Counted from the stretch's first letter, positions 13,500 to 55,477 are shown. The stretch is 64,000 nt of DNA from Candidatus Hecatella orcuttiae (GCA_002011035.2 MTLY02000003.1:256001-320000), one strand, 5' to 3'. Made by a program: numbers and translations. Notes: generated from the sequence alone by a model not told the origin.

Positions 13500-13501
13500 T
13501 T

Positions 13502-14840: not shown

Positions 14841-14865
14841 ACCATAGATTGGTGCTATCTATGGT
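14841..14865. promoter_or_regulatory. Inverted-repeat operator in the divergent nurA/HTH promoter region
   Basis: ACCATAGAT-N7-ATCTATGGT overlapping the HTH start codon; extra half-site CCATAGAT at 14799-14806; TATA-like tracts at ~14805-14835. Confidence 0.6.
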
Positions 14866-15064
14866 TAGCAAATACGAAAAAATAATCTATGAGATGCTTA
14901 GCTCAGAGCCAATAACCCCTAATGAAATTGCCCAAAAACTAAAAATAACGTATAAGACTGCTCAGAGAGCACTATTACATCTAGCGCTTACAAAGGAAGA
15001 TATTGGATACAGAAACTCGGGGCGCATACACATTTTCTGGAAGAAAGACTTAGCAGAAGACTAA
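14861..15064 (+). CDS. Small winged-HTH transcriptional regulator
   Basis: PITPNEIAQKLKITYKTAQRALLHL HTH followed by a wing. Confidence 0.8.
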   Translation: MVSKYEKIIYEMLSSEPITPNEIAQKLKITYKTAQRALLHLALTKEDIGYRNSGRIHIFWKKDLAED

Positions 15065-15088
15065 ATTGAAGGTGAGGTTGAGCCCATC

Positions 15089-18000: not shown

Positions 18001-18364
18001 AAAAACTGAACTCGAAAAGATAAGAGGGAAGAATAAGATGTATTTCGAGGATGAGCTAAACAAGATTGAAACATACTACGACGATATTAGACACACCATG
18101 ATTTTGAAGGAACGTGAATTGGAGGATAAATACGTAGACCTGATAGGCAGAATAAGGAACAGCCGTGAATTTGAAGCCAGAGAAAAATACAGAGAAGAAC
18201 AGAGGAAAATTGAGATTCAACTAACGAAGTTGAGAAACGAAAATAACAGATTCTGGGAGGAGATGGTTAATAAAAGAGCTAAAGAGCTGAAAAAGCTTGA
18301 AGAACAAAATACAATAAAAACTAAGATAGAATTAATTAATTCAGCCCTCATTAAAATCAGTTGA
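15089..18364 (+). CDS. SNF2-family helicase (RapA/YqhH/DrmD-like) with an inserted DnaJ J-domain
   Basis: [54 protein letters not shown]; J-domain [36 protein letters not shown] at ~16172-16351. Confidence 0.92.
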
Positions 18365-18377
18365 GGGTCCCCGACTG

Positions 18378-21300: not shown

Positions 21301-21492
21301 GTTGTGGTTAAACTTATTAATGATTACTTGAGAGCAATTAATAACCGAAGACTGTTGCAACAAGAAATTCAAGCCACGGATAAAATACTAGATGAAAAAA
21401 TCTATAAACTCTACGATCTAAATCAGGATGAAATATCCTTAATAGAGAGTTCTATACAGCGATATTTTGTTGAGGAATCCTTTTACATCTAA
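18378..21492 (+). pseudogene. Type IIG restriction-modification enzyme (HsdR_N-like nuclease + N6-adenine MTase + TRD), frameshifted at ~19445
   Basis: ORF1: LGWD, PADY..ELKK, QAMRYA, LTNF, LGAIYE, GIFYTP. ORF2: VLDPACGSGSFL, GVDLD, GNSL, FDVVVGNPPH, TaqI_C-like YILAFLNS. The two frames meet at AATACATT. Confidence 0.85.
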
Positions 21493-21603
21493 AGAATTAC
21501 CCTACCAAACTAAGGCTTTCATCACTTTCCATGGGAAGATGCATGTTTAAAGACTTATCATGGTGGCTGCCATGGATGTTGATTACTTCATTGAGTATTA
21601 TTA

Positions 21604-22490
21604 GGTTAATGCATAATTCGTTTTTCTTCCTTTTATTCTTTGGCGTCTGATGAGTCGTCTCCTAACCCTTAGGCGTCTCTCCGCAAAGGTCGATTTGGCT
21701 TCTCTGGCTGGGGTTGAGGTTTCCTACTCCGGGCTTGGGCCTAGGCATTACCCTGTGAGGGCTAGTTCCTTGCTTTGGTTTTGATGCACCTTCTGGCTGT
21801 GCCTTCGGAGACCATGCTGGCCGGGTATCTCTCGGCTCACAGGGATGTGGCTGAGGCCTGCGGCTTCAACCGAAACCCTAAGAGCCATAGGGGGGCTCCC
21901 AGCCAGTCGGCTCTGAACAGGTTCAAGCACAGGGTCGGAGTTGAAGGCTTCCAAAGTGTCTTCGAGGAGCTGGCCCAAGGCCTCATGAAGGCTGGTGTGG
22001 CCAAGGGCCGATGGGTTGCCGTGGACTCCTCGGCTGTGAAGGCCTACTTCCGCGGCGACCCAGATGCGCGGTGGGGCTATACAGATGTGGATAAGCCCTT
22101 CTTCGGCTATAAGCTCCATATCCTCATCGACGTTAAGACCGAGCTGCCCGTAGCCTTCAGAATCACCCCGGGCAACGTCCACGACAGTCAAGAGTACCTA
22201 AACCTCTTGGAGGATGCGGAGGAGGCCGACCCTGAGCATGCTTACGGGGATGCTGCCTACGACTCCGAAGCCCTCAGGGAGACATCCAGAAGCCTCTACA
22301 ACCTAGAGCTCCACACACCCAGAAACCCGAGACGTAAGGGTGGAAGGCCCGAAACAGCAAGACCCTGAAGCGCATGCTGTCAGCAGTGGAACGGAGCTTC
22401 TCCCGGCTGAAGCTCTTCCGCCTCAAAGACCTCAAGGTGAAGGGCTTCACATCCACAGCCATCCACATCCTCCTCGCCCTAGTAACCATG
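21604..22490 (+). mobile_element. Degenerate IS (IS4/IS5/IS982-like DDE transposase) with two frameshifts and no right end
   Basis: VAVDSS, FFGYKLH, PGNVHDS, YGDAAYDS and, in another frame, AVERSFSRLK; ATG at 21650; frameshifts at ~21763 and ~22350. Confidence 0.8.
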
Positions 22491-23096: not shown

Positions 23097-24029
23097 TCAC
23101 CTAACAGGGCGTTCAGGTCCGTAAGGGGATAGGTAGGGCTCTGCTTTCAGGTAGGCCCGTTCCAGCTCCGGCCGCGGCGGAATGAAGTAGGCGACCCTCA
23201 GCCGGCCTAGGCTGTGGCCCATCATGTATTCGACCACGGCCTCGTTGACTCCCGCCAGCTTGGCCATGGTGTTGAACCACTTCCGGAGTGAGTGGCAGGT
23301 TATCTGACCGTCGACTCCGGCTTCGGCGGCCAGCCCTGTGACCAGCCGGCGGGCTGTGCGGTCGCTGATGGGGAAGACCCTCTCTTCTGCGCTCGGTTTC
23401 CCGTCCTCTTGGAAGTAGGCTTGGAGGGCGCTGCAGGCGTCCCGGCCTAGGAAGGTTTCAAACCACCCTTGGGTTTTCTGCCTCCGCAGCCGCAGGTAGA
23501 CAGGCCGTTTTCCAGCCTCCAGCTCGGTTTTGACGGCGCCGTAGGTGAGGGCCAGCAGGTCCGCCTCGGAGAGGCCGCTCTGAGCCTGGCAGAGCACGTA
23601 GGCCCGCCCGCGGGGGTCCGCCAGGTCGCACATGGCCCTGAGCTCCTCCCGGCTGGGCACCCGGCTGGCGGTCTCCGTCCAGCTCTGCGGAGCCTTCACC
23701 TTGAGGGGGAGGTAGTTGGCCGTGAAGAAGCTGCGCACCGCGGCGTGGGCGAACGCGGCGGAGCTCCGGCGGAGGCCCTCCCTGCGCTGGAGGTGGTTGA
23801 ACCAGGCTGTGAGCCGCTCCTCCATCCTCCGCCGGACGGCCTCATCCTTCGCCTCCAGCTCCCGGCGCCGCCGCTCCACCAGCTCATCGGGGGACATTTT
23901 GACGAACCCGCAGAACCTTCGCAGCCAGAGCCCGTAGGCCCGCCGGGTGTTGGGGCTGCCGGAGTGTTCCCCGGCCAGCCTCTCGAACCACCGCTCCACC
24001 GCTTCGCCGCCCGGCTCCTGAGGGCCCAC
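23097..24029 (-). CDS. Tyrosine recombinase/integrase
   Basis: SPNTRRAY, QSGLSEADL, RQKT, HSLRKWF, MMGHS, VAY. Confidence 0.9.
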   Translation of the reverse strand: MGPQEPGGEAVERWFERLAGEHSGSPNTRRAYGLWLRRFCGFVKMSPDELVERRRRELEAKDEAVRRRMEERLTAWFNHLQRREGLRRSSAAFAHAAVRSFFTANYLPLKVKAPQSWTETASRVPSREELRAMCDLADPRGRAYVLCQAQSGLSEADLLALTYGAVKTELEAGKRPVYLRLRRQKTQGWFETFLGRDACSALQAYFQEDGKPSAEERVFPISDRTARRLVTGLAAEAGVDGQITCHSLRKWFNTMAKLAGVNEAVVEYMMGHSLGRLRVAYFIPPRPELERAYLKAEPYLSPYGPERPVR

Positions 24030-42272: not shown

Positions 42273-42293
42273 GGGGCCGTGGGCTAGCCTGGT
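42273..42293 (+). repeat. attL: duplicated 5' 21 nt of tRNA-Pro
   Basis: GGGGCCGTGGGCTAGCCTGGT identical to 55078-55098. Confidence 0.92.
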
Positions 42294-42362
42294 TTAACTT
42301 ACGATGTTACCGTAGCATAAACTTTATTAGAGAGGTTTGCGAAGAGTATTTTTTGAGGAGAA

Positions 42363-43685
42363 GTGTCCAGGGTAAGAGATTCTAAGGGGCGTTTTCTGAG
42401 GCAGGAGCACAGCTATTCCGCGTTGATGGGCTACCCTCAGGTGCGAAATTGGATAGACAATTACAGGAGCAAGGAGACCCGGGAAGCCTACATGCGCTGT
42501 TTGGAGACGGTGGTCAAGGAGACGGGGCTGTCCCCTGGCAGGTTGGTTAAGCTTCCAGTAGACAGGGCTAGGCACGCGGTCATGGGGGTGGTTCGGAAGC
42601 TTGTGCAGGATGGTAAGCTTACCATGGCCAAGCAGATTCAGATAGCCTTGAAGGGTTTCTTTGAGGCCAACGACAAGGAGCTTAAATTCAAGAGGGCGGA
42701 GCAGGTGAAGAGGGTTTCCAAGAAAGTTCATGCCCAAATCACCCCCACCCAGGAGGAAATCTACCGGATGGTCGACGCCCTGCCGGAGAAGAGGAACAAG
42801 GCCATTATACTGTGTCTTTTCCAGAGCGGTGTCCGGGTGGGCTGCCTCTGCCGGTGGACCTATGGACTGGTCAAAGACCAACTTTACCCTGAAATAAAGG
42901 TCCCCACGGTCTTGAAGATCACCAACGAAATCGACACCAAACTAAGCGGCTACGGGCTCCCCTACTATTACACTTTCCTCCAAGCTGAAGCAGCCCAAGC
43001 CTTGAGAGACTACTTGGATGAGCGAAAAGCCAAGGAGGGAGAGCTTAAGCCGGAGGACCCTGTTTTCGCCCCCCTGACAAGCAAGGCTACCAAGGAGGGC
43101 ATCGACGAGGTTAGAGTTTTAGAAGTGGTGAAGAGGGCGGCGAAAAGCATAGGCCTAGACCCCCGAGGCGTTTGGACCCACACCCTCCGAAAAAGCTTCA
43201 GGAAGGTCCTCTACGCCGCCAACATCGAAGACGACATGGCTGAAGCCCTGATGGGCCACAAGCTCCGGGGGTCGAAGGAAAGCTACTTCGACAAGAAAGA
43301 CCTGAGAGAGATTGCGGCCAACTACATGAGGGCTAACTTTTCAAGGGCCACCGTGCAGGTTACAGAGGAAGCATGGAAGGAAATCCGACGTCAACAGCTA
43401 CGCCGCGACATGAAGGAGCTTTACGGCGTCGACTTAGAGGAGCTTCTACGCCCCAAGATTGCGAAGATGAAAAGGCCGCTCACCATAGACGAGGAACTGG
43501 AGACCCTTGAATCCAAAGTTCGAGAGCTGTGGGGTATGAAACTGGCCAAGAAGCAAGAACCCAACGGCAGCGGCTTGGAACACCGCATAGTCCGCGAGGT
43601 GGAACTAGTCGACCTCCTGAACCAAGGCTGGGAAATGGTTAAGGAGCTAAGAGACGGCAGGATCCTAGTGAGAAAATCCGCCTAA
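42363..43685 (+). CDS. Tyrosine integrase
   Basis: QSGVRVG, HTLRKSF, LMGHK, ESYF. Confidence 0.92.
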   Translation: MSRVRDSKGRFLRQEHSYSALMGYPQVRNWIDNYRSKETREAYMRCLETVVKETGLSPGRLVKLPVDRARHAVMGVVRKLVQDGKLTMAKQIQIALKGFFEANDKELKFKRAEQVKRVSKKVHAQITPTQEEIYRMVDALPEKRNKAIILCLFQSGVRVGCLCRWTYGLVKDQLYPEIKVPTVLKITNEIDTKLSGYGLPYYYTFLQAEAAQALRDYLDERKAKEGELKPEDPVFAPLTSKATKEGIDEVRVLEVVKRAAKSIGLDPRGVWTHTLRKSFRKVLYAANIEDDMAEALMGHKLRGSKESYFDKKDLREIAANYMRANFSRATVQVTEEAWKEIRRQQLRRDMKELYGVDLEELLRPKIAKMKRPLTIDEELETLESKVRELWGMKLAKKQEPNGSGLEHRIVREVELVDLLNQGWEMVKELRDGRILVRKSA

Positions 43686-43969
43686 TATTTAGGAGGGACT
43701 TTTCCCCCAACGATGGTCTCTATCTCTCTTTTCCGTTCTTTATTGAGCAGAAACATGTCCTCATGGGGCTTCTTGTACCTTTGAAGTAAACCCTCCTTAG
43801 CGAGTTTTTCCACCTCATCCTTATACCAGCTGGTAGGGTAACATTTAGGCAAACCTTTCGGAATGTCGGTTTCCGCTATGTAGTTTCTACCCCAATTCCT
43901 ACCCATGACCAGCTTCTCGATGATGAGCCTTCTGATCTCCTTTCGTTCATCCTCGGAGGGTTTTCTCAT
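43682..43969 (-). CDS. Small winged-helix-like hypothetical protein
   Basis: ATG at 43969; EVEKLAKEGLL pattern; divergent from the wHTH gene. Confidence 0.6.
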   Translation of the reverse strand: MRKPSEDERKEIRRLIIEKLVMGRNWGRNYIAETDIPKGLPKCYPTSWYKDEVEKLAKEGLLQRYKKPHEDMFLLNKERKREIETIVGGKVPPKY

Positions 43970-44060
43970 AAAGTACTTTACCTTAAAGTAATATTTAAAG
44001 GTATTTTCAGTAATGCTTATATAGCCAACCACCAACTAACTAACATGAAGGTACCCGGCT

Positions 44061-44369
44061 ATGGAAAGGAAACCTGTGATAGAAGGAACGTTCAGCCGCC
44101 TCTTCGAAACACCCTTAGGCCGGGTGCTGGACGTGCTCATTCTCCACCGCGGCTACGACCTCTCCCTCAAAGAATTAGCCAACTATGCGGGCATTTCCCC
44201 GAAAACTCTCTGGAAGACCATGGCCAAACTCGAAAGCCTAGGCATCGTCAAACATACCCGCCGAATCGGCAACGCGAAAATGATCACCTTTAACCAAGAC
44301 TCTAACCCCCTAGGAGAACATCTTATCGCCCTAGAATATAGTATACCCCTCAAAGAAATGGAAAGTTAA
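44061..44369 (+). CDS. Winged-HTH regulator
   Basis: LSLKELANYAGISPKTLWKTMAKLESLGIVKHTRRIG. Confidence 0.82.
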   Translation: MERKPVIEGTFSRLFETPLGRVLDVLILHRGYDLSLKELANYAGISPKTLWKTMAKLESLGIVKHTRRIGNAKMITFNQDSNPLGEHLIALEYSIPLKEMES

Positions 44370-44600
44370 ACCTTCTCCGATACGCAAGTTATAAAGCTGA
44401 ATCTGCATTTCCCCGGAGCCTTCAAGCATATCACCTACTCCCCGGAATGGAAAAAGCCGGCGTTCACCAGCTAGTGCCTATCAATCCCCCAAATACCCTC
44501 TGTTAGGCACTGGAAAACCCCTACGTGGTGACTGTGGAGGTCTGAAACGGTGAAACCCATAAAATCAAGGAAATGTAGGAAACTAAACTAGATGGTTCGC

Positions 44601-45014
44601 TTACCTCAATTGTTTGATGGCTTTATCTATGATTTCAATTGCTTCTTTGAACCTTTTCTTGTTGAAATCCAACATGGATATGCCCATCGGGGGGTCTGGA
44701 CTATGAGAAAGTCCATGAATTGTCTCATCGTACGTATTCCTAATGATTCTATAAGTCTTTGCATCTAACTTCCGAACAAGGTCCGGTGTCAAATATGAAT
44801 AGATCTCCCTATGATAGTTGCGACCGCCGGTAAACCCGCTTTCTAAGTCTGAGGCTATGTCGCTTCTAATAATCTCAAGTTCTTCCCTTATACGTCGCTT
44901 TAATTCGGTTTTTTCATATTTTTGTACCCAAGAATAATGAGCTATGGAAGCCAAAAATCCGATAACTATGCCTAGACTTATCGAAAGGAGAGATGCCCAA
45001 AGAATTTCCATCAA
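44601..45014 (-). CDS. Hypothetical protein with N-terminal TM helix
   Basis: Hydrophobic N-terminus; AT-rich. Confidence 0.6.
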   Translation of the reverse strand: MMEILWASLLSISLGIVIGFLASIAHYSWVQKYEKTELKRRIREELEIIRSDIASDLESGFTGGRNYHREIYSYLTPDLVRKLDAKTYRIIRNTYDETIHGLSHSPDPPMGISMLDFNKKRFKEAIEIIDKAIKQLR

Positions 45015-45112
45015 TTTAGGTTACCAACTATATATAGTGCTCTATCTTGTTTAGGCTTTTTTCATGTCTTTACGTTTATTAAAGGGTTTTTCCTTAAACT
45101 TCTCGAGAAAAA

Positions 45113-45241
45113 ATGGAAAAACCTGATAGATGCCCAAAATGCGGAAAAGTCCGTAAAGGATACGTATTCCCTGCTGGACCTCAACCACCCCAAAACGTCG
45201 AATATTGCGATTGCGAACCCGAGCCACCCTATGCTAAGTAG
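45113..45241 (+). CDS. Zn-finger micro-protein (42 aa)
   Basis: Own translation MEKPDRCPKCGK..EYCDCEPEPPYAK; TTTATTAAA about 30 nt upstream. Confidence 0.55.
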   Translation: MEKPDRCPKCGKVRKGYVFPAGPQPPQNVEYCDCEPEPPYAK

Positions 45242-45364
45242 GCTTTCTCAAAAGTTGTGTCCATCCTTGTTCAATGCTGACCAAATTTTTGGACCGCATT
45301 CAAAGCAAAGGATGTTGAGAGGGGACCCTAGCCAAAAATTTGGCGAGGGTAAAGCTGTTGAGGT

Positions 45365-45523
45365 TTAGAGTTTTTTAACCAGCATATCCCCGTCGGTAAC
45401 GGTTACACCCAACAAGTCGCCTTCTTTTATCTCTAGGGCCTCCACCACTTCTTTTGGGATGGTCATTCGTAGGCTGTTCCCTATTCTTGTAACCTTGACC
45501 TTTAACATTATTGGCATGCTCAT
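45365..45523 (-). CDS. AbrB/MazE/SpoVT-family DNA-binding protein (52 aa)
   Basis: Own translation KVTRIGNSLRMTIPKEVVEALEIKEGDLL. Confidence 0.85.
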   Translation of the reverse strand: MSMPIMLKVKVTRIGNSLRMTIPKEVVEALEIKEGDLLGVTVTDGDMLVKKL

Positions 45524-45631
45524 AAGTTATACAAGGGTTATACTTAAATATAAGTGTATCCCTAATTATAATTGCGGATATACTCCGTATAACAAGAGAG
45601 ATGGGTAAAAGTATGGGGGTGAGAAAAAGGG

Positions 45632-45886
45632 TTGCCTAAGAAAAACTATGTGCAAAGAAAATTCCTGAACCCAATTGACCTGCACGTCTCCGTTCCCGGA
45701 GGCCTCTGGGAGGAACTCAAACGCCTGTTCTACGACCCCAGCTTCCACGTGGATGACAGCCATTTCTTAACGAGGATTCTGGAGGAATACCGCGACTACA
45801 AGTGGCCAAGAAAAGCCCTCTTAAATTTGGTTGAGTTGCACCGTGAAGAACTTGGCAAAGAAAAGGGGGTGAGCAAAGGGCCTTGA
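45632..45886 (+). CDS. Putative RHH regulator
   Basis: LHVSVPGGLWEELKRL..SHFLTRILEEY. Confidence 0.55.
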   Translation: MPKKNYVQRKFLNPIDLHVSVPGGLWEELKRLFYDPSFHVDDSHFLTRILEEYRDYKWPRKALLNLVELHREELGKEKGVSKGP

Positions 45887-46056
45887 ACGACTATGTATTA
45901 GGCGCTCTAGAAACCTTGGCTTGGGTTCGAAAACAGATAGAAGCTGGGAGGAAGCCCGCGGAGCTTAAAGCCGAAATCAACAGCCTTCTCAAAGAGATCC
46001 TAGACAACGCGGCATTGCACGCTCTAGGCAAGGTTAAAGCCCAAGCCACCATCTAA
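45883..46056 (+). CDS. Hypothetical protein (57 aa)
   Basis: TTG overlapping upstream TGA; own translation MNDYVLGALETLAWVRK.. Confidence 0.55.
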   Translation: MNDYVLGALETLAWVRKQIEAGRKPAELKAEINSLLKEILDNAALHALGKVKAQATI

Positions 46057-46380
46057 AACCTCCCTCTACCCTATTTTTTTAGAAAATTTATGTCTAAAAT
46101 TTTAGTCAAATACTCGAGAAAATTTTAAAATTTTCGATCAGAAGTTTAAAATCGATGAAGTTCCCTATCTTTACTAACTACGTAATGAGGGTGATCGCGG
46201 ACTTGTACTCCGGTTGGATCGGGCATGGGCGGCCCAATAATTTCATTCCGCGATCCGTATGAGTGAAAGGACTGTCCTCCGAAAGCTTTTTTCCTTTGTT
46301 CACTCGAGCTTAAGGACTTTTCAAAATCCCAAACTTTTAGAGGGGGGTCGAGACGGCTGAACAGAAAAGATTGTGCATCT

Positions 46381-46650
46381 TTGATTTTAGAAGTACTCAA
46401 AAAGGCTGAGAGGCCGCTAGACGTAAAGAAAATTCAAGAACTAGCCGGCATCGCCCATTGGTCAGTTGCCTTGAACCACTTATTACAGTTGCTAATTGAG
46501 GGCCAAATAGCCGGCTTCAAGACCAGCAAATCATGGATATTCTTTCTCCCGGAGAACCTTCCTAAAACTCTTCTTGAGGAGAAACTCCAACCCAAAAACA
46601 CGCTTGGGGGGACTGTATACGGCTTGAGAGAGGTGAAAGGTGAATCATGA
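46381..46650 (+). CDS. Winged-HTH protein
   Basis: ILEVLKKAERPLDVKKIQELAGIAHW..EGQIAGFKTSKSWIF. Confidence 0.7.
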   Translation: MILEVLKKAERPLDVKKIQELAGIAHWSVALNHLLQLLIEGQIAGFKTSKSWIFFLPENLPKTLLEEKLQPKNTLGGTVYGLREVKGES

Positions 46651-47528
46651 GCGAAAAGACCCCCACACCCTCTCCACGAGAGGATGTTTTCGCCATCATG
46701 GAGAGGAAGGACGAGGACCAGATTATTGCGGAACTGAAGGGGGCCTACCTGGATGAATTCGTCTACTCGTTCGAGCATGGTGATCGTCGTGTAGTTGGGC
46801 TTTCATGGTCAGGGGTAAAGGAGATAGCGTGGCGGCTGGGTTCAATCAGCGTAGACGACCTAACCGTTGAGGATAAGGGTGATTTTTGGCTAGCCAAATG
46901 CTCTGCGACTGACCACGTGAGAGGGAACCGGCGTTGGGGAGCCGCGGTCCAACCCAAAAAAATCGGCGACAAAGAAGACGTGTTTGCCCTCCCTAAGGCT
47001 GTTTCCAAAGCTCAACGAAATGCTATCAGAGCGGTCATCCCCGAGGCTATGATTAAGACATTCATAGACCGGTTTCTCGAAGAGAGCCGAACCAAGCAAC
47101 CATCTCCTACCCCTTCCGCAGAGGTTAAAACCGCCGCTGAAAAATCGTTGGCAGCCAATAATTTGGGCGAAATAACAGAGCTTAAAGCAAATGATGTTCC
47201 GCTGGCCATCTTAACCGTTAAACATGATGAAGCTTTCCTTACGCCTCAGCAGAAGTTTCATCTTTCCACGCCTCCTTGGGGCTCGTTTTTTGTAGCTAAG
47301 GTTTTGGAAGCTATGGTGGCGAAAGATGCCGAATTGGCGATGAAGGGGGAGATAGGACCGACCGATTTGTTCAGCTATAACATCGATGAAGAGGGGGGAA
47401 TTCTGCGAGAGGTGTATGTGCGAAACTGGAGAACAAAGGAAAGGCTTTCTCAGATTAAGAACGCAGCACGATGGACCCTAAGTAAAATGCTGGAGCGGAG
47501 TAAAACGCCGCAGGCTGGGGGCTCCTAG
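46647..47528 (+). CDS. Putative single-strand annealing protein (Rad52/Redbeta/ERF-like)
   Basis: GLSWSGVKEIA, beta-rich core, ALPKAVSKAQRNAI helix, Pro-rich linker. Confidence 0.5.
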   Translation: MSEKTPTPSPREDVFAIMERKDEDQIIAELKGAYLDEFVYSFEHGDRRVVGLSWSGVKEIAWRLGSISVDDLTVEDKGDFWLAKCSATDHVRGNRRWGAAVQPKKIGDKEDVFALPKAVSKAQRNAIRAVIPEAMIKTFIDRFLEESRTKQPSPTPSAEVKTAAEKSLAANNLGEITELKANDVPLAILTVKHDEAFLTPQQKFHLSTPPWGSFFVAKVLEAMVAKDAELAMKGEIGPTDLFSYNIDEEGGILREVYVRNWRTKERLSQIKNAARWTLSKMLERSKTPQAGGS

Positions 47529-47529
47529 C

Positions 47530-48417
47530 ATGGAGTATGAGAGCATCGTAAGTTGGACGCGGGGTATCATAAGCCAGTATTCCATGGCCCTCACTTTGCG
47601 GCAGATCTACTACCGGTTGATTAGCCAACATCCCAGCATCCCCAACACGAAGAGCACCTATAACATGCTCAGCAAAATCTTGGTTAAAGCCAGGGAGCGG
47701 GGCGACATTCCTGAAGACGTCATCGAGGATCGGAGCAGGGAAACGATAGGCGGCGAAGGGTGGACATGGGACAGCCCCGACGACTTTCTTGAATACGTTA
47801 TGGAGGATTTCTCCTCCAAGTGGATGAGCTACAGTCGAAGCCTATGGGCTAGTCAACCTTGCTATGTGGAAGTTTGGGTGGAGAAAGACGCTCTTTCCCG
47901 GATAATCAGCGACGCTGTGGACGGTTTTAGGGTTAGAACTGCACCGAGCCGGGGCTATTCAAGCTTCACCTACGTGAGGGATGCGGTGAAACGGTTTGAA
48001 GGCTTACCCAACCGGTGGGTCGTAATATTGCATTTCTCGGACCATGACCCCAGCGGCTTGGATATGACAAGGGACCTTCAGGAGCGCTTTGACAGGTACG
48101 GTAACGGCCTCGAAATCCACGTGGAAAGGGTGGCCCTAACCTATGAACAAGTTCAAAAATACGGTTTGCCGCCAAACCCCACCAAGCGGGCGGACACCCG
48201 AAGCAAGGGCTACATCAGCCGATATGGGGATGGGTGCTGGGAGCTTGACGCCATAGAGCCTGACGAGCTTCAGCGGATGGTTAGAGCATCGGTGGCGAAG
48301 CACATCGTTCCCGAAGTTTGGAAGGGAGCTGTGGATAGGGAGGAGCAGGAGCGGGAACGTTTGAGGGTGAAATTTGAGGAATTCACCCGGCTTTTGAAGG
48401 GGAACGACCATGACTAG
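47530..48417 (+). CDS. TopoVI-A/Spo11-like TOPRIM protein (Mini-A-like)
   Basis: LTLRQIYYRL, VEVWVEKDAL, SRGYSS, HFSDHDPSG, ERVALT, WELDA. Confidence 0.78.
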   Translation: MEYESIVSWTRGIISQYSMALTLRQIYYRLISQHPSIPNTKSTYNMLSKILVKARERGDIPEDVIEDRSRETIGGEGWTWDSPDDFLEYVMEDFSSKWMSYSRSLWASQPCYVEVWVEKDALSRIISDAVDGFRVRTAPSRGYSSFTYVRDAVKRFEGLPNRWVVILHFSDHDPSGLDMTRDLQERFDRYGNGLEIHVERVALTYEQVQKYGLPPNPTKRADTRSKGYISRYGDGCWELDAIEPDELQRMVRASVAKHIVPEVWKGAVDREEQERERLRVKFEEFTRLLKGNDHD

Positions 48418-49939
48418 TTTTTACTATGACCATTTTATCCCCTACGTTCAAAATAAGGTGAAGTGGGATGATCCCCTAGTTGACACCATCGCCAGGGTGG
48501 GTTTCTCCGCCTTCACCGACAATCCTTTAAACCTGTTTTTGAAGGGCCCCTCCAGTATTGGCAAGTCATATATTGTGAAGCATACCTTAGCTGCTTTCCC
48601 AAAGAAATGTAAATGGAACTTAGGGGGGATAAGTCCCAAGGCTCTAATCCACGACCCAAGGGCTGTTTTGGTCGATGAGGAGGGCAACATCCTCGAGCCC
48701 CCCACTGTTTCCAAGAAAGATGGCCCTGAAGCTTGGGAGGAATATAAAAGCAAGTTAAAACGCAGCCGGTATCTGATAGATCTTAAAAATGTTATTCTAA
48801 CTTTCCTTGAAAGCCCAAGCGAAGACACCTTCAACATGCTGAGGCCTATCCTAAGCCATGATGAAGTGGAAATAGAATACCGCATAGCCCCAAGAGGGCA
48901 AAGTGAGACTCATACCAAGAATATTGTGGTGAAAAACTGGCCTGCCATGATCTGTGCTACGACAGACAAGGATTATTTAGAGGACTTGGCCACCCGGAGC
49001 ATAACCGTAACCCCGAATGAATCCATTGAAAAATTCGCCGAAGCGCATAAAGTCACCGCGAAAAAGTATAGCATGCCCTCTTTACCCCAAGAGGACCTAG
49101 AATTTAAAGCTATCCGGGACTGGATAGCTCAAAAAATAGGTTCCGGCGTAAATGTTGTTTCCCCTCAGGCTGAAATGGTGGCTGTGTGGTTTCCCCACAA
49201 TTTAGCCCGAGACATGAGGGACTTCGACAAATACCTGAGCTTCGTAATTGGCAATTGCATCATACACGAGGAAGACAGGCCTAAGATTCGAATCAACAAG
49301 CTATGGGAGTTCACCATCACAACTTTGGATGATTTCTTGGCGATCGACCGTTTTTGGAGCCAAATTATCAAAACTACCCGGATGGGGATCTCCGCTGGGG
49401 CCATCGAACTATATGAGAAGGTCCTTATTCCCCTTAGTGAGGAAGGCATTAATCTTAACACAATAACCATACGTGAAAGGTATTCCGAAGTTTTCAAAAA
49501 ACCCATAGCTCCCTCCAACCTTTCAGGCAAACTGAAAGAGCTTCTAAATTTGAACTTGATCGAAGAGGCGACCGACGAGGCGGACCGTAGAAGAAAGCGG
49601 TATATCCTCATAGACAGTGATAAGGCTGAAAATGTTTCAAATTACTTCAGTAATCGATTGGTGGGCTTATTTGACCAAGACATCCTCAATATGTGGTTAG
49701 ATTCTCTAAAAAATTATTTCACGCAAAAAGGACTTTGTAAAGAATCATTCAACTACGAGTTCATCTACAAAGGTGATGTTATAAAAACTGAATTTTTGCT
49801 GAAATATCTTAACTCTTTCAATTTAGTTCAAAAAACCAATTCAAGCTTAGAAATTAAATCAAAAAACGAAATGAAACATTCTGAAGGAAATCTCGAAACA
49901 CTTCAAATTAAAACTTTTAGGGAGGCTGAAACTGGTTGA
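48410..49939 (+). CDS. P-loop ATPase (putative replicative helicase) with C-terminal wHTH
   Basis: NLFLKGPSSIGKS, LRPILSHD, ICATT, LATRS, LKELLNLNLI..DEADRRRK. Confidence 0.7.
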   Translation: MTSFYYDHFIPYVQNKVKWDDPLVDTIARVGFSAFTDNPLNLFLKGPSSIGKSYIVKHTLAAFPKKCKWNLGGISPKALIHDPRAVLVDEEGNILEPPTVSKKDGPEAWEEYKSKLKRSRYLIDLKNVILTFLESPSEDTFNMLRPILSHDEVEIEYRIAPRGQSETHTKNIVVKNWPAMICATTDKDYLEDLATRSITVTPNESIEKFAEAHKVTAKKYSMPSLPQEDLEFKAIRDWIAQKIGSGVNVVSPQAEMVAVWFPHNLARDMRDFDKYLSFVIGNCIIHEEDRPKIRINKLWEFTITTLDDFLAIDRFWSQIIKTTRMGISAGAIELYEKVLIPLSEEGINLNTITIRERYSEVFKKPIAPSNLSGKLKELLNLNLIEEATDEADRRRKRYILIDSDKAENVSNYFSNRLVGLFDQDILNMWLDSLKNYFTQKGLCKESFNYEFIYKGDVIKTEFLLKYLNSFNLVQKTNSSLEIKSKNEMKHSEGNLETLQIKTFREAETG

Positions 49940-50106
49940 AGTGTCCCATCCTGCCAAATCACAGTACAGACATCGACGGGCGTTGCTCAAGGGAAGCCTT
50001 CTGCCGGTATGCCCGCCTCCCAGAGTGTCCGCGCCGCCGCGGCAGAGCAAGGGAGGGAAAGCCGTAGTGGCCTCCCTTTTTCATGTTCACGTTCATGGTG
50101 TAAAAG

Positions 50107-50319
50107 ATGAAGAGAAAGAAAACCCTCCAAACTGAGGAAGCGGTTCCGAGCTACGCCGCAGATGGCCCCTGGCCATTCCCTTGGGTGTCCATCAGACTGG
50201 AAAGTGAAGGCGAGGCCTTCAACATCACCCTGCACACCCTCGTTTCCGTCGACGCCATGGCAAAAAGCGTTGAGAAAATCGCCGACGAGTTGAGGAAGTT
50301 GAGGGGCTTGAAAATATGA
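50107..50319 (+). CDS. Hypothetical protein
   Basis: 70 aa; stop overlaps next ATG. Confidence 0.55.
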   Translation: MKRKKTLQTEEAVPSYAADGPWPFPWVSIRLESEGEAFNITLHTLVSVDAMAKSVEKIADELRKLRGLKI

Positions 50320-53300
50320 GCCAACAGGAAGCCCAAAAGAAAAACGGCGAACCCTTAACAGCCGTCGCCTACGTGGACACTTCCAAACTCCCCAAAGGTT
50401 ACCGGTGGTCAGGGACACCGGGCCGGTCGGCCATTCTTACGCCCCGCGGCGTGGCGATTCCCCCGCCGGGTCCTAGAGGCTACGAAACCTACGGGTCAGC
50501 GGAAAAAGAGCAGCGAGAATTTGAACGGTTAGCCACGAAAATCGAGATCCGCGGAGGCCCCAAAGCGGGGAGAGCCGTCACCGTCACAGGCCTCGCCCCC
50601 GGCGAAACCGTGGAAGAGGCTGCCCGCCGGGCGGCTAGGGAGCATGTGAAATTGGCCACAGGCAGAGAGCCTAGGGTCCAAATCGTCTACGGAGCCCGGG
50701 TGGCTGCGAGAGGCGGGAGAAGGGTGGTTGAACCCGTAGCGGGGATAGTCCAACCCACTGGCGTACCCGTGTTCGCCTTGAAAGCTGAACTCACCCCGAA
50801 AGCCAAACGGGAAGTCGAAGCCTTCCTAGCGGGAACCCCCTACAAGGAGCCGGAGTTGAGGGAAACACCGGAAGGCGTCGAACTAGCCTACAAGGTGGAG
50901 GAGCCCGGTGAAACCTATTGGGTGGTGGAAGGCTATCCTGAGCGGCGGTTTGCCACCGAGGCGGAAGCCCGAGCCTTCGCCGAACTGGTATCAGGCCCAA
51001 GAGCCGAATTGGCAGCGGACCTAGGAGGCAGGGAGGGGGCGATCCCCCTAGCCCCCGGCATCTTCAAAACCATCGAGGACACCGTGTTCGACCCCGACGC
51101 GCCCATCCTAGGTTATGTGGAAATTCCCCGCAAACCTTTGGCTGTTCACCCCCTCGGAGCCTACCCGGCTCCCTTCACCACTTACAGGGAAGCCCGGCCT
51201 TTTACCAGCGTTTTTGAAACCCCAACCGGGGAAACCATGGTCGAACCCGACGTCTTCGCTGAACCGCCTTCTCTGCCCAAATCCTTAACCGAGCAGCGGC
51301 TTGAGAAGCTTTTCGCCCTAGAGAAAATGCTGGGAGAGCTTGAGGGACCTCCTGAAGAGTTCGCCGCCCTCGGAGCCTACGCCATAGGGGTCCCCCCGAC
51401 CAAGGAGGAGTTTGAGGCTGTCACAGGCTACCGGCCTGAAAGGGAGGCCGCCCAGCTTCTCGGCAGGTCCATAATCGAGTATGAGAAGGCCTTCGCCGCG
51501 CCCGTCTACGGCATCACCGAGAACATCGTTAGAACCGTGGAAGACATCCACGGAGCGGTCACGGGAAGAGAGCTTTTCCCCATCCCCTATGCCGTGAGGG
51601 TGAAGGCTGCCCCTGAAGAATTCCTGTCCCTAGAAGCCCGCGCCGTCACGGGGAGGATTTCGAAGAAAGAACTGGAAGCCGTCGCCGCCTACAGGCCTGA
51701 GTTCAGGTTTGAAGTCGTCCCTGAACTTGAAAAACCCTACACGCCGAAGCCCTACGCCCCCACAGCCTTCCAAGCGGTCCTCACATCGGTTCTGGAAACT
51801 GGAAAACCCCTAGCCGAACCTCCACCTGAAGCCCTCCCAGGTTTGGGGAGGTTGGCTGTCGGCGTTCCCCCCACCGAGAAAGAACTTGAAGCCATCACCG
51901 GCTACCGCCCCACCGTTAGGCCCGTCCTTTCCAAGGAGATGCGGCGGCTGCTCAAACCTGAGATGCGGGGTTACGCGTTGGGCTCCCTTCTCTACGAGGC
52001 CGCGCTGTGGTATGGAATAAGCAAACCCTTGGAGAAAGGGCTTAGGCTCACCTCCAAAGGTATAGGCAAAATAGTTGAATATTATAGGGCTCCCTTCAGA
52101 CCAAGGGTTCCTCCCACAACCAGATACGTTGAACGAGTCCCCGGGGCCCTAGTTAAGAGGGTGGGGTATCCGAAGAGAACTCAGAAAACTTTCCGGGAAA
52201 TCCCCTATACGAGGCTTGGCGTGGAAGACCTTAAAGTGGTCCCTCCTGAAGGGTACAGGCCTCCCTTGGCTAGCCATTTACGGGTCATCGAGGTGACCGC
52301 AAAGCGGCAGGCCAAGCTTCCAGAATATTTCGTGATAACAGCCAAAGACGTAACTGATGTAATCCCATCCAAAGAGGCGGTTTCCCTATTTCCCAAAATC
52401 TTGGGGAAAACCCGTAGAATCCAAGTCCCTCCAACCCAGGCGACGGAGTTCATCTTCAGAATTAAGAAGGGCAGAATCCGGTTGGTGGCGGAGGTTCCCT
52501 CGACCATGCGCGGTGTCCCCATAGCGATGAGGCCTTGGAAGAGGGTAGGGGGTCTACAAGAAACCTTAGGCCCTAAGTTTCGATGGACCCCCGTCAAACC
52601 TAGAGCTAGGGAGATTCTGAAGATTGAAGAAGAGTTCACCAAGGAAGTAGGCTACAAACCTCGAACACCGATTCCCCCCAGCCGCCAAACCTTCCTAGCC
52701 CCGCCTCCACCGGGGAGGCCCTATGAAGCCATACCCGCCCCGCCTCCCTCGGTCATGGAGAAAGCCGTCGAAGCCGTGGACCCCTTCGCCCGGTGGTCCC
52801 CCATCCTAGCCGCCCAAGCCTACCTCCAACCCCGGGTCACGTATCCCAAGGGAACCGACATGTGGGCCCGGTTGGAGGGGAGGTTTAAACTCCCACCCGA
52901 ATACCGAACACCCACCAAGTTAGGCGTAGCCCCCACCCGCAAGCCTAAGTTTAAACCCTACCCCAAACCGTACCCCGCCATCCTCCGCATGAGAAAAAGA
53001 GGGAAACTCTTCGAAAGGGGAACCGTCGGGTTTAATGTCGACGTGGACCGCGCCTTACGCCCCTTAACAAAGATAACCCGCCAACCCGCCCGCAAACCTA
53101 AGGAGGCCCCCGCCGCCGACATCGCCCAAGAGATCTTCCCCAGGATGAGGGAGAGGCCCACCGTCGGGGTTACGCCCACTCCCCGTTTTAAGGTGGCCCC
53201 TGGGCAGAGGGTAGGCGTCATGCCCCGGCAGCTTCTCAGACAGGTTGCTGAAACTGTTCAAATGCAGGTTGAGCGCCCATGGGAGAGAAGACGGATACGC

Positions 53301-53507
53301 CGTCCTCCACCGCTGTTCCTGTTTCCCCCCCGACGTGGGAAAACTAAGAAGACACTCTTGCCTGAATGGCGCTACAAGGAATACCGACACTACATAGGCG
53401 ACCCGTTTCAGGGAATGAGGGGTCCCCTCAAAAACTTGAACGCCTTCTTGGCCGGCAAGAAGCCGGCGAAAAAGAAGGGGAAACGCAAGAAGCGGAGGAA
53501 AAGGTGA
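50316..53507 (+). CDS. Large Pro/Arg-rich protein (1063 aa) with internal repeats and basic tail
   Basis: Uninterrupted ORF coupled at both ends; GVPPT..E.EA.TGYRP repeats; KKPAKKKGKRKKRRKR tail. Confidence 0.8.
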   Translation: MSQQEAQKKNGEPLTAVAYVDTSKLPKGYRWSGTPGRSAILTPRGVAIPPPGPRGYETYGSAEKEQREFERLATKIEIRGGPKAGRAVTVTGLAPGETVEEAARRAAREHVKLATGREPRVQIVYGARVAARGGRRVVEPVAGIVQPTGVPVFALKAELTPKAKREVEAFLAGTPYKEPELRETPEGVELAYKVEEPGETYWVVEGYPERRFATEAEARAFAELVSGPRAELAADLGGREGAIPLAPGIFKTIEDTVFDPDAPILGYVEIPRKPLAVHPLGAYPAPFTTYREARPFTSVFETPTGETMVEPDVFAEPPSLPKSLTEQRLEKLFALEKMLGELEGPPEEFAALGAYAIGVPPTKEEFEAVTGYRPEREAAQLLGRSIIEYEKAFAAPVYGITENIVRTVEDIHGAVTGRELFPIPYAVRVKAAPEEFLSLEARAVTGRISKKELEAVAAYRPEFRFEVVPELEKPYTPKPYAPTAFQAVLTSVLETGKPLAEPPPEALPGLGRLAVGVPPTEKELEAITGYRPTVRPVLSKEMRRLLKPEMRGYALGSLLYEAALWYGISKPLEKGLRLTSKGIGKIVEYYRAPFRPRVPPTTRYVERVPGALVKRVGYPKRTQKTFREIPYTRLGVEDLKVVPPEGYRPPLASHLRVIEVTAKRQAKLPEYFVITAKDVTDVIPSKEAVSLFPKILGKTRRIQVPPTQATEFIFRIKKGRIRLVAEVPSTMRGVPIAMRPWKRVGGLQETLGPKFRWTPVKPRAREILKIEEEFTKEVGYKPRTPIPPSRQTFLAPPPPGRPYEAIPAPPPSVMEKAVEAVDPFARWSPILAAQAYLQPRVTYPKGTDMWARLEGRFKLPPEYRTPTKLGVAPTRKPKFKPYPKPYPAILRMRKRGKLFERGTVGFNVDVDRALRPLTKITRQPARKPKEAPAADIAQEIFPRMRERPTVGVTPTPRFKVAPGQRVGVMPRQLLRQVAETVQMQVERPWERRRIRRPPPLFLFPPRRGKTKKTLLPEWRYKEYRHYIGDPFQGMRGPLKNLNAFLAGKKPAKKKGKRKKRRKR

Positions 53508-53746
53508 TGGTGTCGAAGAGGTTGGTTAAAATCACCCTCCGAGCCCGCAGGAAGGGGCCCCCTGTTTGCCGGTACTGCCATCGACCCCTCCAGCCTAGGG
53601 AACGGGCCTGGAGGTATGTCACCCGATATGGCGTCGTCTACGCTTGCCCAACCTGTGAGGAAAACCCGGTCATCACCCCTGTGCTCCCCGTTCCCCGCAA
53701 AAAGAAACCCGTTCAGGTGGAACTACCGCTTGGAAGGCCCTCTTAA
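53507..53746 (+). CDS. Zn-finger protein
   Basis: CRYC..CPTC; ATG overlaps upstream TGA. Confidence 0.65.
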   Translation: MVSKRLVKITLRARRKGPPVCRYCHRPLQPRERAWRYVTRYGVVYACPTCEENPVITPVLPVPRKKKPVQVELPLGRPS

Positions 53747-54068
53747 AGCCCAAGAGGAAAGGCTGCGGAGAGAGTTGCGGAGGCTTGAACGCAGCCTAGG
53801 CCTAGTTCCAGGTGAGTTACGCCTAGAATGGATGCCGACGGAAGACGGAAAAGAAAACGACGGTGAAGTGAAAGGGGGAACTGTCCGCATTTATGCTAAA
53901 GATTTTAAAAAGGCCAAACAGACCCTCAAACATGAGTTAGTGGACTTGGTCCTGTCAAGGTATGAGCAGCCTTGGAGGGACTTGGCTTTCACCCTTCTTG
54001 AAAACTTCACCAAGTCCCAATATCGACGAAAGGAGGCTTTGGTCGAACGGCTTTGCAACCTAATTTAG
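53730..54068 (+). CDS. Hypothetical protein (metallopeptidase-like fold possible)
   Basis: TTG start after AGGTGG; GEVKGGTVRIY..TLKHELVD. Confidence 0.6.
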   Translation: MEGPLKAQEERLRRELRRLERSLGLVPGELRLEWMPTEDGKENDGEVKGGTVRIYAKDFKKAKQTLKHELVDLVLSRYEQPWRDLAFTLLENFTKSQYRRKEALVERLCNLI

Positions 54069-54156
54069 GCGGAAAGGCGGCCCTCCAAAAAGGGCCAAGG
54101 GTCGGCCTCCCTTTTCCCTTGGTTTGGCCATGGCCCACCGCCCCGCAAACAAGGAG

Positions 54157-55065
54157 ATGGTGAAACTGGAAGTGGTTGAAGAGGAGGTTGAAGAGGAAAA
54201 GGGCTTAGCCGCCGCCAGCCTCTTCCGGCAAGCCTATAAGAACCATGGCTACGTGCAGCTTTTCATCATCGGCCCCCAAGGCGTAGGCAAGACCACCTAC
54301 TCCTTGCAAATAGCTTGGGAAGTCTACCGGAGCCTCCACCCGCAACTAACCGACCAAGAAGTTTGGGACCTAGTCTTAGACCGGCTTTTCTTCGACGTTC
54401 GCCCTTCCATCGCCCTGTTCCGGTGGGCTCGGCAACACGGCAAACGCATCCCCCTGGTAATCTACGATGACGTAGGCGTCCACCTGTCCAAGTACACTCC
54501 GTTTCAGAAGGGAGGCTACGGGGTGGTGAAGGCTGTGGCCTCTCTCTTCGACACCATAAGAACCATCTGTAACGGTGTGATCATCACCAGCCCTAAGCTT
54601 CACAGCATAAAAGCGGTGCAGGAGCTTTCCTGGTACAAGGCTAAAATCTTCAAAACCGATGACGGCCTAATCCGCCAAGCTAAGGTTTGGGAGTACACCG
54701 AGGAAGTGTGGGGGGACCCTTGGCATTCATGCATAATAACGGATGACTTCTACCTGTGGCTCCCTCCCGACGTGAGAAAACGCTATGAAGAAAAACGAGG
54801 GGAAACCGTCGACGCCATCTTGGATGAGTGTGAACGAGCCCTAACCAAGACTCCGAGATATACTTTAAATTGCTGTGAAGTATATGAGCTATACCGGGAA
54901 TGTGGTAACTTGAGAGAAACAGCTAGAAGGTTGAATAAGCCTTATTCAACCATCCAGGGAGCCTTAGACCGCCACCGCCGACACACAGGGATGAACGACG
55001 ACGCCTCAAGGGTTTATGGTAATGCTCCCGGAAAAATCCACATTCCTGAAGAATCAAAAAATTGA
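54157..55065 (+). CDS. SSV1 B251-like ATPase with C-terminal HTH
   Basis: GPQGVGKTTY, LFFD, RIPLVIYDDVGVHLSKY, IRT..GVIITSP; NLRETARRLNKPYSTIQ HTH. Confidence 0.78.
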   Translation: MVKLEVVEEEVEEEKGLAAASLFRQAYKNHGYVQLFIIGPQGVGKTTYSLQIAWEVYRSLHPQLTDQEVWDLVLDRLFFDVRPSIALFRWARQHGKRIPLVIYDDVGVHLSKYTPFQKGGYGVVKAVASLFDTIRTICNGVIITSPKLHSIKAVQELSWYKAKIFKTDDGLIRQAKVWEYTEEVWGDPWHSCIITDDFYLWLPPDVRKRYEEKRGETVDAILDECERALTKTPRYTLNCCEVYELYRECGNLRETARRLNKPYSTIQGALDRHRRHTGMNDDASRVYGNAPGKIHIPEESKN

Positions 55066-55077
55066 ATATGCTACGTT

Positions 55078-55186
55078 GGGGCCGTGGGCTAGCCTGGTCT
55101 ATGCTTGGTGGCTTGGGCCCACCAGATCGCCGGTTCAAAAGGGCGCAGGCGAAGGCTGAGCCCTGAAACTCCGGCCGGCCCCACCA
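55078..55186 (+). tRNA. tRNA-Pro(UGG) with 30-nt intron at 59/60 (55140-55169); 5' end is attR
   Basis: Acceptor GGGGCCG/CGGCCCC-ACCA; anticodon TGG 55114-55116; strict BHB with TTCA/TGAA helix and AAA/ACT bulges. Confidence 0.95.
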
Positions 55187-55254: not shown

Positions 55255-55407
55255 GCCGGGGTCGCCTAGAAGCACCCCTAAAGGGTGTTGGGAAACCTGG
55301 TAGGGCGCAGTTCCCGCGCGAAGGGAGCCCAAGCCTGCTAACCGGCTGAGGCAGCGAGTCTGTGGCTCGTTGGAGCCTCATGGGTTCAAATCCCATCCCC
55401 GGCGCCA
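55255..55407 (+). tRNA. tRNA-Ser(GCU) with three introns (55270-55295, 55311-55332, 55341-55356)
   Basis: Removing three BHB-like inserts gives a full cloverleaf: GCCGGGG/CCCCGGC, CAGGC-CTGCTAA-GTCTG, long variable arm GGCTC/GAGCC, ATGGG-TTCAAAT-CCCAT. Confidence 0.9.
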
Positions 55408-55477
55408 CCAACCCCACCCCTGAGGGTTGCAGCCGGGCAGCCGGCTTGCTGTCTGTTTCTGTCTCTCCAAAAAAAAA

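Follow-up and report, generated by a model that had tools for sequence, protein, structure and literature searches.

A 12.8-kb integrated element with a fusellovirus-type ATPase and no recognisable capsid gene in an uncultured Bathyarchaeia archaeon

Insertion in a tRNA gene and the integration module

A 64,000-nucleotide (nt) stretch of DNA (G000:C3:256001-320000, hereafter the window) from the genome of Candidatus Hecatella orcuttiae, an uncultured Bathyarchaeia archaeon (1.75 Mb, 3 contigs, 97% complete), contained a complete integrated element of 12.8 kb. It was inserted in a proline tRNA gene and carried 16 intact genes between its repeats, all 16 open reading frames (ORFs) being open. 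Both attachment (att) sites named in a preliminary description of the window were present as 24-nt direct repeats that differ at one position (42273-42296 and 55078-55101). The element end proposed there, 55098, was the end of the exact 21-bp core of this repeat (42273-42293 and 55078-55098), which was identical on both sides. In the window the core had two matches (≤2 mismatches), and two or more matches occurred in 0 of 100 shuffles; genome-wide it had two forward and no reverse matches (≤1 mismatch).

The left site, attL (42273..42296, plus strand), consisted of the 21-bp exact core and 3 nt with one mismatch, and duplicated the 5' end of a tRNA-Pro(TGG) gene (55078..55186, plus strand), the first 21 nt of which formed the attR core. 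The tRNA gene, 109 nt in length, has a fully paired acceptor stem, an anticodon arm with TGG, an encoded CCA end and a T-loop interrupted by an intron of about 30 nt. Because of this intron it was missed by tRNA finders: no tRNA was detected in the unedited attR region by ARAGORN or Rfam (E ≤ 0.1). After 28-32 nt had been cut from the T-loop in silico, ARAGORN called tRNA-Pro(TGG) with its start at 55078. Since the right repeat opens the intron-containing gene, the element was inserted at the 5' end of that gene. One contig of run X7 carried a T>C change at 55109, in the tRNA-Pro gene; contigs diverged after 55407-55412.

Host genes lay on both sides of the element, V4R and KaiC-like genes on the left and an aminotransferase and a GATase on the right. 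The integrated state was seen in Logan contigs from two studies, of which X1 spanned the whole element and X5 both junctions. The element showed zero differences between them, X1 being possibly the source of the assembly. In six sister genomes, the aminotransferase orthologue (57-62% identity) and about 6 kb upstream of it were inspected; neither the left-flank genes nor the tRNA adjoined it, so there was no synteny for an empty-site comparison. Compared with the rest of the host genome, the element gave nothing beyond chance matches of 18-22 nt. The host has two CRISPR arrays on the same contig, outside the window (at about 237.8-238.5 kb and 699.5-701.3 kb of G000:C3), with different repeats in at least 9 and at least 24 copies spaced 71-76 nt apart. 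No spacer of these two arrays, to which the search was confined, matched the element. The listed holders of the element included no RNA data set.

A tyrosine integrase of 440 amino acids (aa) was encoded next to attL (42363..43685, plus strand). It had been described as intact, which was borne out by a match to PF00589 (Phage_integrase; 37.3 bits against a gathering cut-off of 27.1, E 3.1e-9) that places it among the tyrosine recombinases. It also matched phrog_216 (E 7.6e-14) and, weakly, a XerA-like NCBIfam model. Candidate catalytic residues (VRVG, HTLR, MGH, ESY) were picked by eye in the translation only. The att core lay 67 nt upstream of the integrase gene and not inside it. With direct repeats at both ends, one of them within a tRNA gene, and an intact integrase beside one att site, the element belongs to the tRNA-targeting class of integrative elements; the kind with the att site outside the integrase gene is known as pNOB8-type. 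Integrase genes of SSV type are split by integration. The gene of the element was intact, and its product had no BLASTP match (E < 0.01) to the integrases of the fusellovirus SMF1 (NC_020882) or the guttavirus APOV1 (HE580237), the latter annotated as SSV-type in its own record. Integrase homologues were present in 118 of 401 Bathyarchaeia genomes (E ≤ 1e-10), although the weakest of these may be Xer-like. The eight loci with the closest integrases (39-55% identity) had no further gene in common with the element.

The integrase had a recurrent companion at the other end of the element. Between a zinc-finger gene and the ATPase gene a small protein had been noted before; it was present, with a start that we revised to what is most likely a TTG at 53730 (53730..54068, plus strand, 112 aa). 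The frame is open from 53616, and the family alignment, which begins near residue 44 of the long ORF, fits the TTG. The protein carries a conserved RHExxDY motif. It was not an orphan, its family occurring in 40 of the 401 Bathyarchaeia genomes. Of 12 loci with the gene for the approximately 112-aa protein, seven also encoded a homologue of the element integrase close to it; the distance was 6-65 nt in five loci, 583 nt in a sixth and 3.3 kb in a seventh, and the orientation was mostly convergent. In three of the other five loci the small gene lay near a contig end. Neighbours of this module included PrimPol+PriCT_1, MCM, Cdc6-like, PrimPol-wHTH and Hjc genes, and 41 neighbouring ORFs scanned yielded no structural family. 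The ATPase was found in none of the 12 loci, nor did they have any other gene in common with the element (E ≤ 1e-3). The type III CRISPR-Cas genes of locus L092 (G067:C14, 12982-15342; Cas_APE2256/Csm6-like and RAMP/Cmr3-like) lie a few kb from its module. We found no published description of the pairing of integrase and approximately 112-aa protein, though no dedicated literature search was made. The protein is a candidate recombination-directionality or excision factor, or another accessory factor of integration.

The fusellovirus-type ATPase and the right-hand operon

The last gene of the element (54124..55065, plus strand) encoded a 313-aa AAA+ ATPase of the B251 ("DnaA-like") type (phrog_5484, E 8.1e-37). 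Walker A and B motifs were present in the alignment with its relatives, and a C-terminal extension resembling a helix-turn-helix (HTH; weak HTH_38 signal, E 0.0044) was common to the ATPase and its two closest relatives. B251 homologues had been said to occur in fuselloviruses and related elements; consistent with this, tblastn returned 67 records from fuselloviruses, guttaviruses and bicaudaviruses, none reaching 60% identity, with SMF1 as the best (35% identity, E 4e-27). By organism name these were Sulfolobus (57) and, with two records each, Sulfolobales, Betafusellovirus, Acidianus, Bicaudavirus and Aeropyrum. When the 16 element proteins were searched against every ORF of SMF1, of APOV1 and of the other loci under comparison, real matches (n = 47) were confined to the ATPase; four weak matches of the AbrB-type regulator described below and a single spurious one of the 1063-aa protein were also recorded. 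Judged by these sequence comparisons, the ATPase is the sole gene that the element has in common with spindle-shaped viruses.

The ATPase was rare in the class, being found in 5 of the 401 genomes. In two loci, L056 (G002:C12, 8.3 kb) and L058 (G125:C26, 4.5 kb), it stood beside small proteins with two transmembrane (TM) segments, together with a protein of 736-856 aa with hydrophobic N- and C-termini, a layout typical of spindle viruses. L056 also encodes, immediately after the ATPase, a CxxC protein of 62 aa, and in addition a protein of 126 aa that contains an HELTH motif. A third locus, L057 (G282:C51, 1-11200; contig cut at the left), combined the ATPase (26% identity) with a mini-A topoisomerase (32%), an integrase-like gene and a gene in the A154 position, that is, upstream of the ATPase. 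It had several small zinc-finger or basic ORFs and no two-TM protein; from 11461 onwards there are host genes resembling pyruvate:ferredoxin oxidoreductase. Among 45 metagenomic relatives of the ATPase (25-37% identity), nine were inspected. Most of these had a conserved gene of 115-163 aa overlapping the ATPase start, and some had small multi-TM proteins.

The closest ATPase, 68% identical, was found in a sister genus (L004; G003:C184, 1896-4300), directly after a 97-aa two-TM gene. This pair formed an island of 2.4 kb between host genes, with no integrase. The pair looks like a remnant, or like a module that was domesticated. Similarity at the DNA level between the L004 copy and that of the element ended at the borders of the ORF, and we therefore regard the ATPase as a mobile module. 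A two-TM gene and an ATPase gene left in an island with no integrase indicate that such modules decay in place. The element itself might thus be a defective provirus, now fixed after a spindle-shaped virus had been stripped of the genes for its coat and fibres; in line with this, contigs contained no excision product. We consider this very unlikely, given that all 16 ORFs were intact and tightly packed, that the att cores were identical over 21 bp and that the right-hand operon held neither pseudogene fragments nor spare space. Moreover, the remaining gene set was not fuselloviral, and the element was invariant in the X1 and X5 contigs of the two studies (with X1 perhaps the assembly source).

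The ATPase gene closed a translationally coupled operon in the order 70 aa, 1063 aa, zinc ribbon, approximately 112 aa and ATPase. The 70-aa ORF (50107..50319, plus strand) overlapped the start of the gene for the 1063-aa protein (50316..53507, plus strand) in an ATGA at 50316-50319. The stop of the latter overlapped the start of the zinc-ribbon gene (53507..53746, plus strand) in a TGATG at 53505-53509. The stop codons read at the helicase, 70-aa, 1063-aa and zinc-ribbon genes were TGA or TAA; none was TAG. The preliminary description had listed the large protein, a zinc finger, a small protein and the ATPase here. All four were found, and besides the small protein the zinc-ribbon gene received a new start, most likely 53507. 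Its 79-aa product has a CxxC...CxxC arrangement and a weak match to an NCBIfam zinc-ribbon model (E 0.0034).

The 1063-aa ORF had a GC pattern of coding type, which supports it as a real gene, and its product was devoid of homologues, signal and TM segments. No homologue was obtained by tblastn in phages, by pattern scans of the genome and of viral contigs, in 61 or 401 genomes of relatives, in the ESM Atlas or, apart from the protein itself, in a search of 5.8 billion proteins. A match in genome G047 (E 5e-4) was rejected as spurious, as it sat in a host aminotransferase. The protein contained 12.2% proline, 10.1% arginine and no cysteine, three repeats of the EFEAVTGYRP type and no hydrophobic segment. 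Its C-terminal half was strongly basic, residues 501-1063 carrying a net charge of about +74. An AlphaFold2 (AF2) model from the single sequence was unusable (mean predicted local distance difference test score, pLDDT, 38.5), only residues 188-228 or so exceeding 80. From its composition, the basic, proline-rich protein most likely binds or condenses the DNA of the element.

The tight coupling of the five right-hand genes is reminiscent of a late module, and the 1063-aa protein would fit a large virion protein in size and position. The element could accordingly be an autonomous temperate virus of a new family, with a virion made of unrecognised proteins and the ATPase acting in genome delivery into particles. 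The 1063-aa protein would then serve as nucleoprotein or in the shell, or else one of the small helical ORFs (57, 70 and 84 aa) would provide the coat. The ATPase is a core gene of the Fuselloviridae and is also present in Guttaviridae and Bicaudaviridae (PMC9608457), which agrees with a virus. We nevertheless consider this rather unlikely: the 1063-aa protein had none of the signal or anchor segments of the large L056 and L058 proteins, the integration module was that of elements with plasmid-type replication genes, and only 1 of the 16 genes was common to any described archaeal virus family.

Replication genes and small regulators

The operon for replication and recombination that had been noted in the preliminary description was confirmed and comprised a Rad52-fold protein, a Topo mini-A and a P-loop helicase. 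The first of these (46647..47528, plus strand, 293 aa) was conserved over its N-terminal 150 residues or so. An AF2 model based on an alignment of 24 sequences reached pLDDT values above 90 at about residues 50-150, and Foldseek matched it to human RAD52 (E 3.4e-5, probability 1.00; RAD52 chains spanned E 3.4e-5 to 4.4e-4) and further to Mgm101, Red-beta and RecT. TM-scores against RAD52 were low (0.23-0.36) because the N-terminal half alone aligns. On the strength of the model, the protein is assigned as a single-strand annealing protein (SSAP) with the beta-beta-beta-alpha fold of the Rad52 N-terminus, and not as a coat protein.

Topo mini-A, a protein resembling the A subunit of type IIB topoisomerases, followed at 47530..48417 (plus strand, 295 aa; phrog_6247, E 2.5e-70) and was matched by 84 tailed-phage records at 34-39% identity. 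Members of this subfamily are described as being about 300 aa long, with a catalytic tyrosine after arginine and an aromatic residue, a Toprim glutamate and DxDxxG, an xWELDAL box and no B subunit nearby (PMC7671362). The element protein agreed with this description, with LRQIYY, VEKD, DHDPSG and CWELDAI in its translation, and none of the 16 element proteins had a GHKL/Bergerat-fold match that would indicate a B subunit. Reports of mini-A to date associate it with viruses (PMC7671362), a further point in favour of an autonomous virus.

The third gene (48410..49939, plus strand) encoded a P-loop replication helicase of the MTBMA_p00010 type (509 aa) with a C-terminal MarR-like winged helix-turn-helix (wHTH; profile match against the PDB, E 2.4e-4). 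Among 1489 relatives, 12 were sampled, and seven of these carried PrimPol, AEP or PriCT_1 at the N-terminus. In the ESM Atlas the protein was linked with PF27228 (MTBMA_p00010) as well as with Toprim-primase fusions. It represents the helicase portion of a replication protein of the primase-helicase kind, and we counted the frequent fusion of its family to primases in favour of a plasmid-like backbone. No match was found in phage or plasmid collections. Pattern scans of the genome and of viral contigs revealed no close relative (the viral scan counted two relatives), and by hhalign the helicase had nothing but the P-loop in common with SMF1_0013 and with the L057 protein of 485 aa. Sequence searches against PDB chains with the SSAP, mini-A and the helicase yielded nothing useful.

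A cluster of small regulators had also been described. It was recovered with two or three wHTH proteins and one of AbrB type. The best supported was a winged-helix regulator of 102 aa (44061..44369, plus strand; HTH_11/MarR-like, E 6.6e-7, above cut-off), and the AbrB/SpoVT (MazE-fold) regulator of 52 aa (45365..45523, minus strand; PF04014, E 4.4e-13) was divergent from the rightward operon. A putative wHTH of 89 aa (46381..46650, plus strand; HTH_52, E 0.0045, below cut-off) opened the replication operon. The third possible wHTH was a 117-aa ORF (43682..44035, minus strand), the start of which may be an internal ATG. It matched nothing in Pfam or PHROGs and only weakly the AbiEi family of PADLOC (E 0.0048), and apart from this AbiEi-like match PADLOC indicated no defence family among the element proteins. 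Three further ORFs had no family in Pfam, PHROGs, NCBIfam or PADLOC: a 137-aa protein with one N-terminal hydrophobic segment (44601..45014, minus strand), an 84-aa ORF (45632-45886, plus strand) and a 57-aa ORF (45883-46056, plus strand).

Relation to satellites, plasmids and spindle-shaped viruses

The earlier statement that the element lacks a recognisable capsid gene was upheld. None of its proteins matched a structural family in Pfam or PHROGs (E ≤ 0.01), and for 11 of the 16 there was no Pfam family at all at this threshold. Coat proteins of the VP1/VP3 type were sought by a hydropathy scan for two hydrophobic 19-mers in all ORFs of at least 30 aa on both strands. One segment was found in four ORFs and two in none, leaving the element with no such coat protein. 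As a positive control, the 75-aa two-segment ORF beside the ATPase of L058 matched phrog_11172 "virion structural protein" (E 1.3e-8). Apart from the 1063-aa protein no unassigned ORF exceeded 150 aa, so that, going by typical sizes, there is little room for an HK97 or double-jelly-roll protein. No known capsid family was found, although only one of the ORFs of unknown function could be folded well. The absence of both a two-TM protein and a structural family argues against an autonomous virus.

Proximity to the described spindle-virus families was likewise limited. The element resembled SMF1 and APOV1 in genome size (12.8 kb against 14.8 and 13.8 kb), a closeness that fits a virus, and in tRNA-gene integration and the B251-type ATPase. 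It differed from them in having no VP1/VP3-type coat, no end-filament protein and no other gene in common. The absolute core of the Fuselloviridae includes A154 upstream of the ATPase, VP4, A82, A92, C166 and B115 (PMC9608457). The element had the ATPase, and no A154-like or other core gene was detected, the ATPase being the only protein that matched any SMF1 ORF. The approximately 112-aa gene, which occupies the A154 position, showed no similarity to A154 (BLASTP to SMF1_0007, E 3.8; tblastn, nothing; hhalign against 11 upstream partners, probability 0.1), and this identity was discarded. Too few genes were common with Fuselloviridae or Guttaviridae for the element to cluster with either. Huangdivirus ("Huangdiviridae"), given in PMC10541130 as the only described spindle-shaped provirus of Bathyarchaeia, is likewise an integrated element with a tyrosine integrase and a spindle-virus-type AAA+ ATPase. 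Compared by description only, it differs in that it is reported to encode VP1- and VP3-type two-helix coats and VP2 (PMC10541130), for none of which a comparable gene was found in the element.

Closer parallels were found among capsid-less elements. In archaeal dark-matter islands the SSV "DnaA-like" ATPase (arCOG07960) is one of the most frequent families, and it has been proposed that small integrated elements without a capsid are satellite viruses (Makarova et al. 2014, PMC4158269). The island elements are small and carry an integrase, a helicase derived from a primase-helicase and fuselloviral genes, with no capsid gene (PMC4158269), as does the element. Unlike it, they are built on the arCOG07809 primase/SF1-helicase (PMC4158269), whereas the element helicase showed no relation by hhalign to SMF1_0013, the SMF1 protein annotated with a C-terminal primase fragment. 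The description of the islands in PMC4158269 includes no mini-A, Rad52-like SSAP or 1063-aa orphan.

The Sulfolobus satellite pSSVx has a B251-type ATPase and no coat gene (PMC9608457, PMC4158269). It and pSSVi, both plasmid-virus hybrid satellites, are small circular elements that, like the one described here, lack a coat gene and encode a B251-type ATPase, a replication protein of primase-helicase lineage and regulators of the AbrB and wHTH types; C68 (AbrB-like) and Stf76 (wHTH) are named in the reference list of PMC9608457. Satellites of the pSSVx type combine a lack of coat genes with a plasmid-type replication protein of their own, and this combination was found in the element as well. 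They are unlike it in that its host belongs to the Bathyarchaeia and not the Sulfolobales, and its tyrosine integrase has the att site outside the gene. Further, the element had no detectable A154 partner, the integrase-associated gene holding that position, and its replicon consists of the Rad52-like SSAP, mini-A and the stand-alone MTBMA_p00010-type helicase instead of a pRN-type PrimPol-helicase. pSSVx is about 5.7 kb in size, whereas the element is 12.8 kb, carries the 1063-aa orphan and has no known helper.

With regard to the integration module, the nearest counterparts were the Bathyarchaeia elements that encode the integrase together with the approximately 112-aa protein (L090-L092, L095, L097, L100, L101). 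Their integrase homologues were 22-27% identical, the small gene stood at an operon end facing the integrase, and plasmid-type replication genes were present. They differed in having neither the ATPase nor any other gene of the element. Since the approximately 112-aa family stands beside the integrase and plasmid-type replication genes, the backbone is best described as an integrative plasmid-like element with an acquired viral ATPase. This backbone type is common in Bathyarchaeia, and the acquisition of the ATPase parallels the satellite pSSVx.

The preliminary description had weighed a capsid-less element, a satellite and a new small virus family as possibilities. Our results favoured the first two, the module of integrase and approximately 112-aa protein being common to plasmid-like elements. 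The element had its own integration and replication genes, one spindle-virus ATPase and no coat gene, and we therefore lean towards reading it as a capsid-less plasmid-virus hybrid, possibly helper-dependent, and not as a new virus family. On this reading, the integrase would excise the element, possibly steered by the approximately 112-aa protein, and the excised 12.8-kb circle would replicate via its own helicase and the primase and polymerase of the host. The small repressor-type regulators lie on diverging strands. The ATPase, with its presumed DNA-binding tail, could either start replication at the origin of the element or pass its DNA to the particles of a helper spindle virus. With such a hand-over the element would spread as a satellite; otherwise it would be inherited vertically only or spread by other means.

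Several observations weigh against a hybrid of this kind. A helper was not apparent in the host genome, which contained no match to phrog_11172 and none to phrog_5402 (a weak search, as its control gave nothing anywhere), and tblastn (E ≤ 0.01) with the candidate structural proteins of L004, L056 and L058 found none in it. The A154 partner of the fuselloviral and pSSVx B251 proteins was undetectable by BLASTP, tblastn and hhalign. No joint of an excised circle or an empty site was present in the Logan contigs of four runs, contigs being all that was searched. Eight ORFs were without an assigned function, among them the 1063-aa ORF, which makes up a quarter of the element. To our knowledge, many archaeal coat proteins are small, helical and invisible to any sequence method, and B251-type ATPases are otherwise a viral hallmark. 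A more specific proposal is that with the element a new temperate virus family of Bathyarchaeia has its first member, with no membrane-type coat and a particle built on the cysteine-free, proline- and arginine-rich 1063-aa protein or on a small helical ORF. We regard this as unlikely. If true, a spindle-virus ATPase and a phage-type mini-A/Rad52 replication set would be joined in one virus, with a virion architecture that has no known counterpart.

Bathyarchaeia rank among the most abundant archaea of sediments, and little has been described of their mobile elements. Four virus families have been proposed for them, with one spindle-type provirus (PMC10541130). The loci compared here indicate that the fusellovirus-type ATPase circulates in Bathyarchaeia both with and without adjoining coat genes, and that Topo mini-A, so far reported in association with viruses, is also found on a plasmid-like backbone. 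The family of the approximately 112-aa protein, which had escaped notice and is a candidate excision factor, accompanies a widespread Bathyarchaeia integrase. If the capsid-less hybrid depends on a helper, the satellite lifestyle of pSSVx would extend beyond the Sulfolobales; if it formed particles alone, these would represent a new virion type.

Elsewhere in the window, a low-GC island (37-46%; 4000-22400) had the look of a defence island. It encoded a SMC_N/Rad50-like protein of 852 aa, a Metallophos/Mre11-like protein of 429 aa, a HerA-type DUF87 protein of 589 aa and a SNF2 helicase of 1091 aa into which a DnaJ domain is inserted. Next came genes for an HSDR_N protein and for a methylase of the Eco57I/MmeI type that has a TaqI_C domain, followed by a DDE transposase (21775-22368). 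Beside the island was a second, shorter tyrosine recombinase (23097-24029, minus strand, 310 aa, in a stretch of 67% GC) with Phage_integrase and SAM-like N-terminal domains, a weak match of the element integrase (G000:C3:279151-279750). Near the left end of the window, a 640-aa ORF (514-2436, plus strand, 64-68% GC) had PCNA_N as its sole domain match (residues 36-124) and, if real, would be unusually long for a PCNA-like protein.

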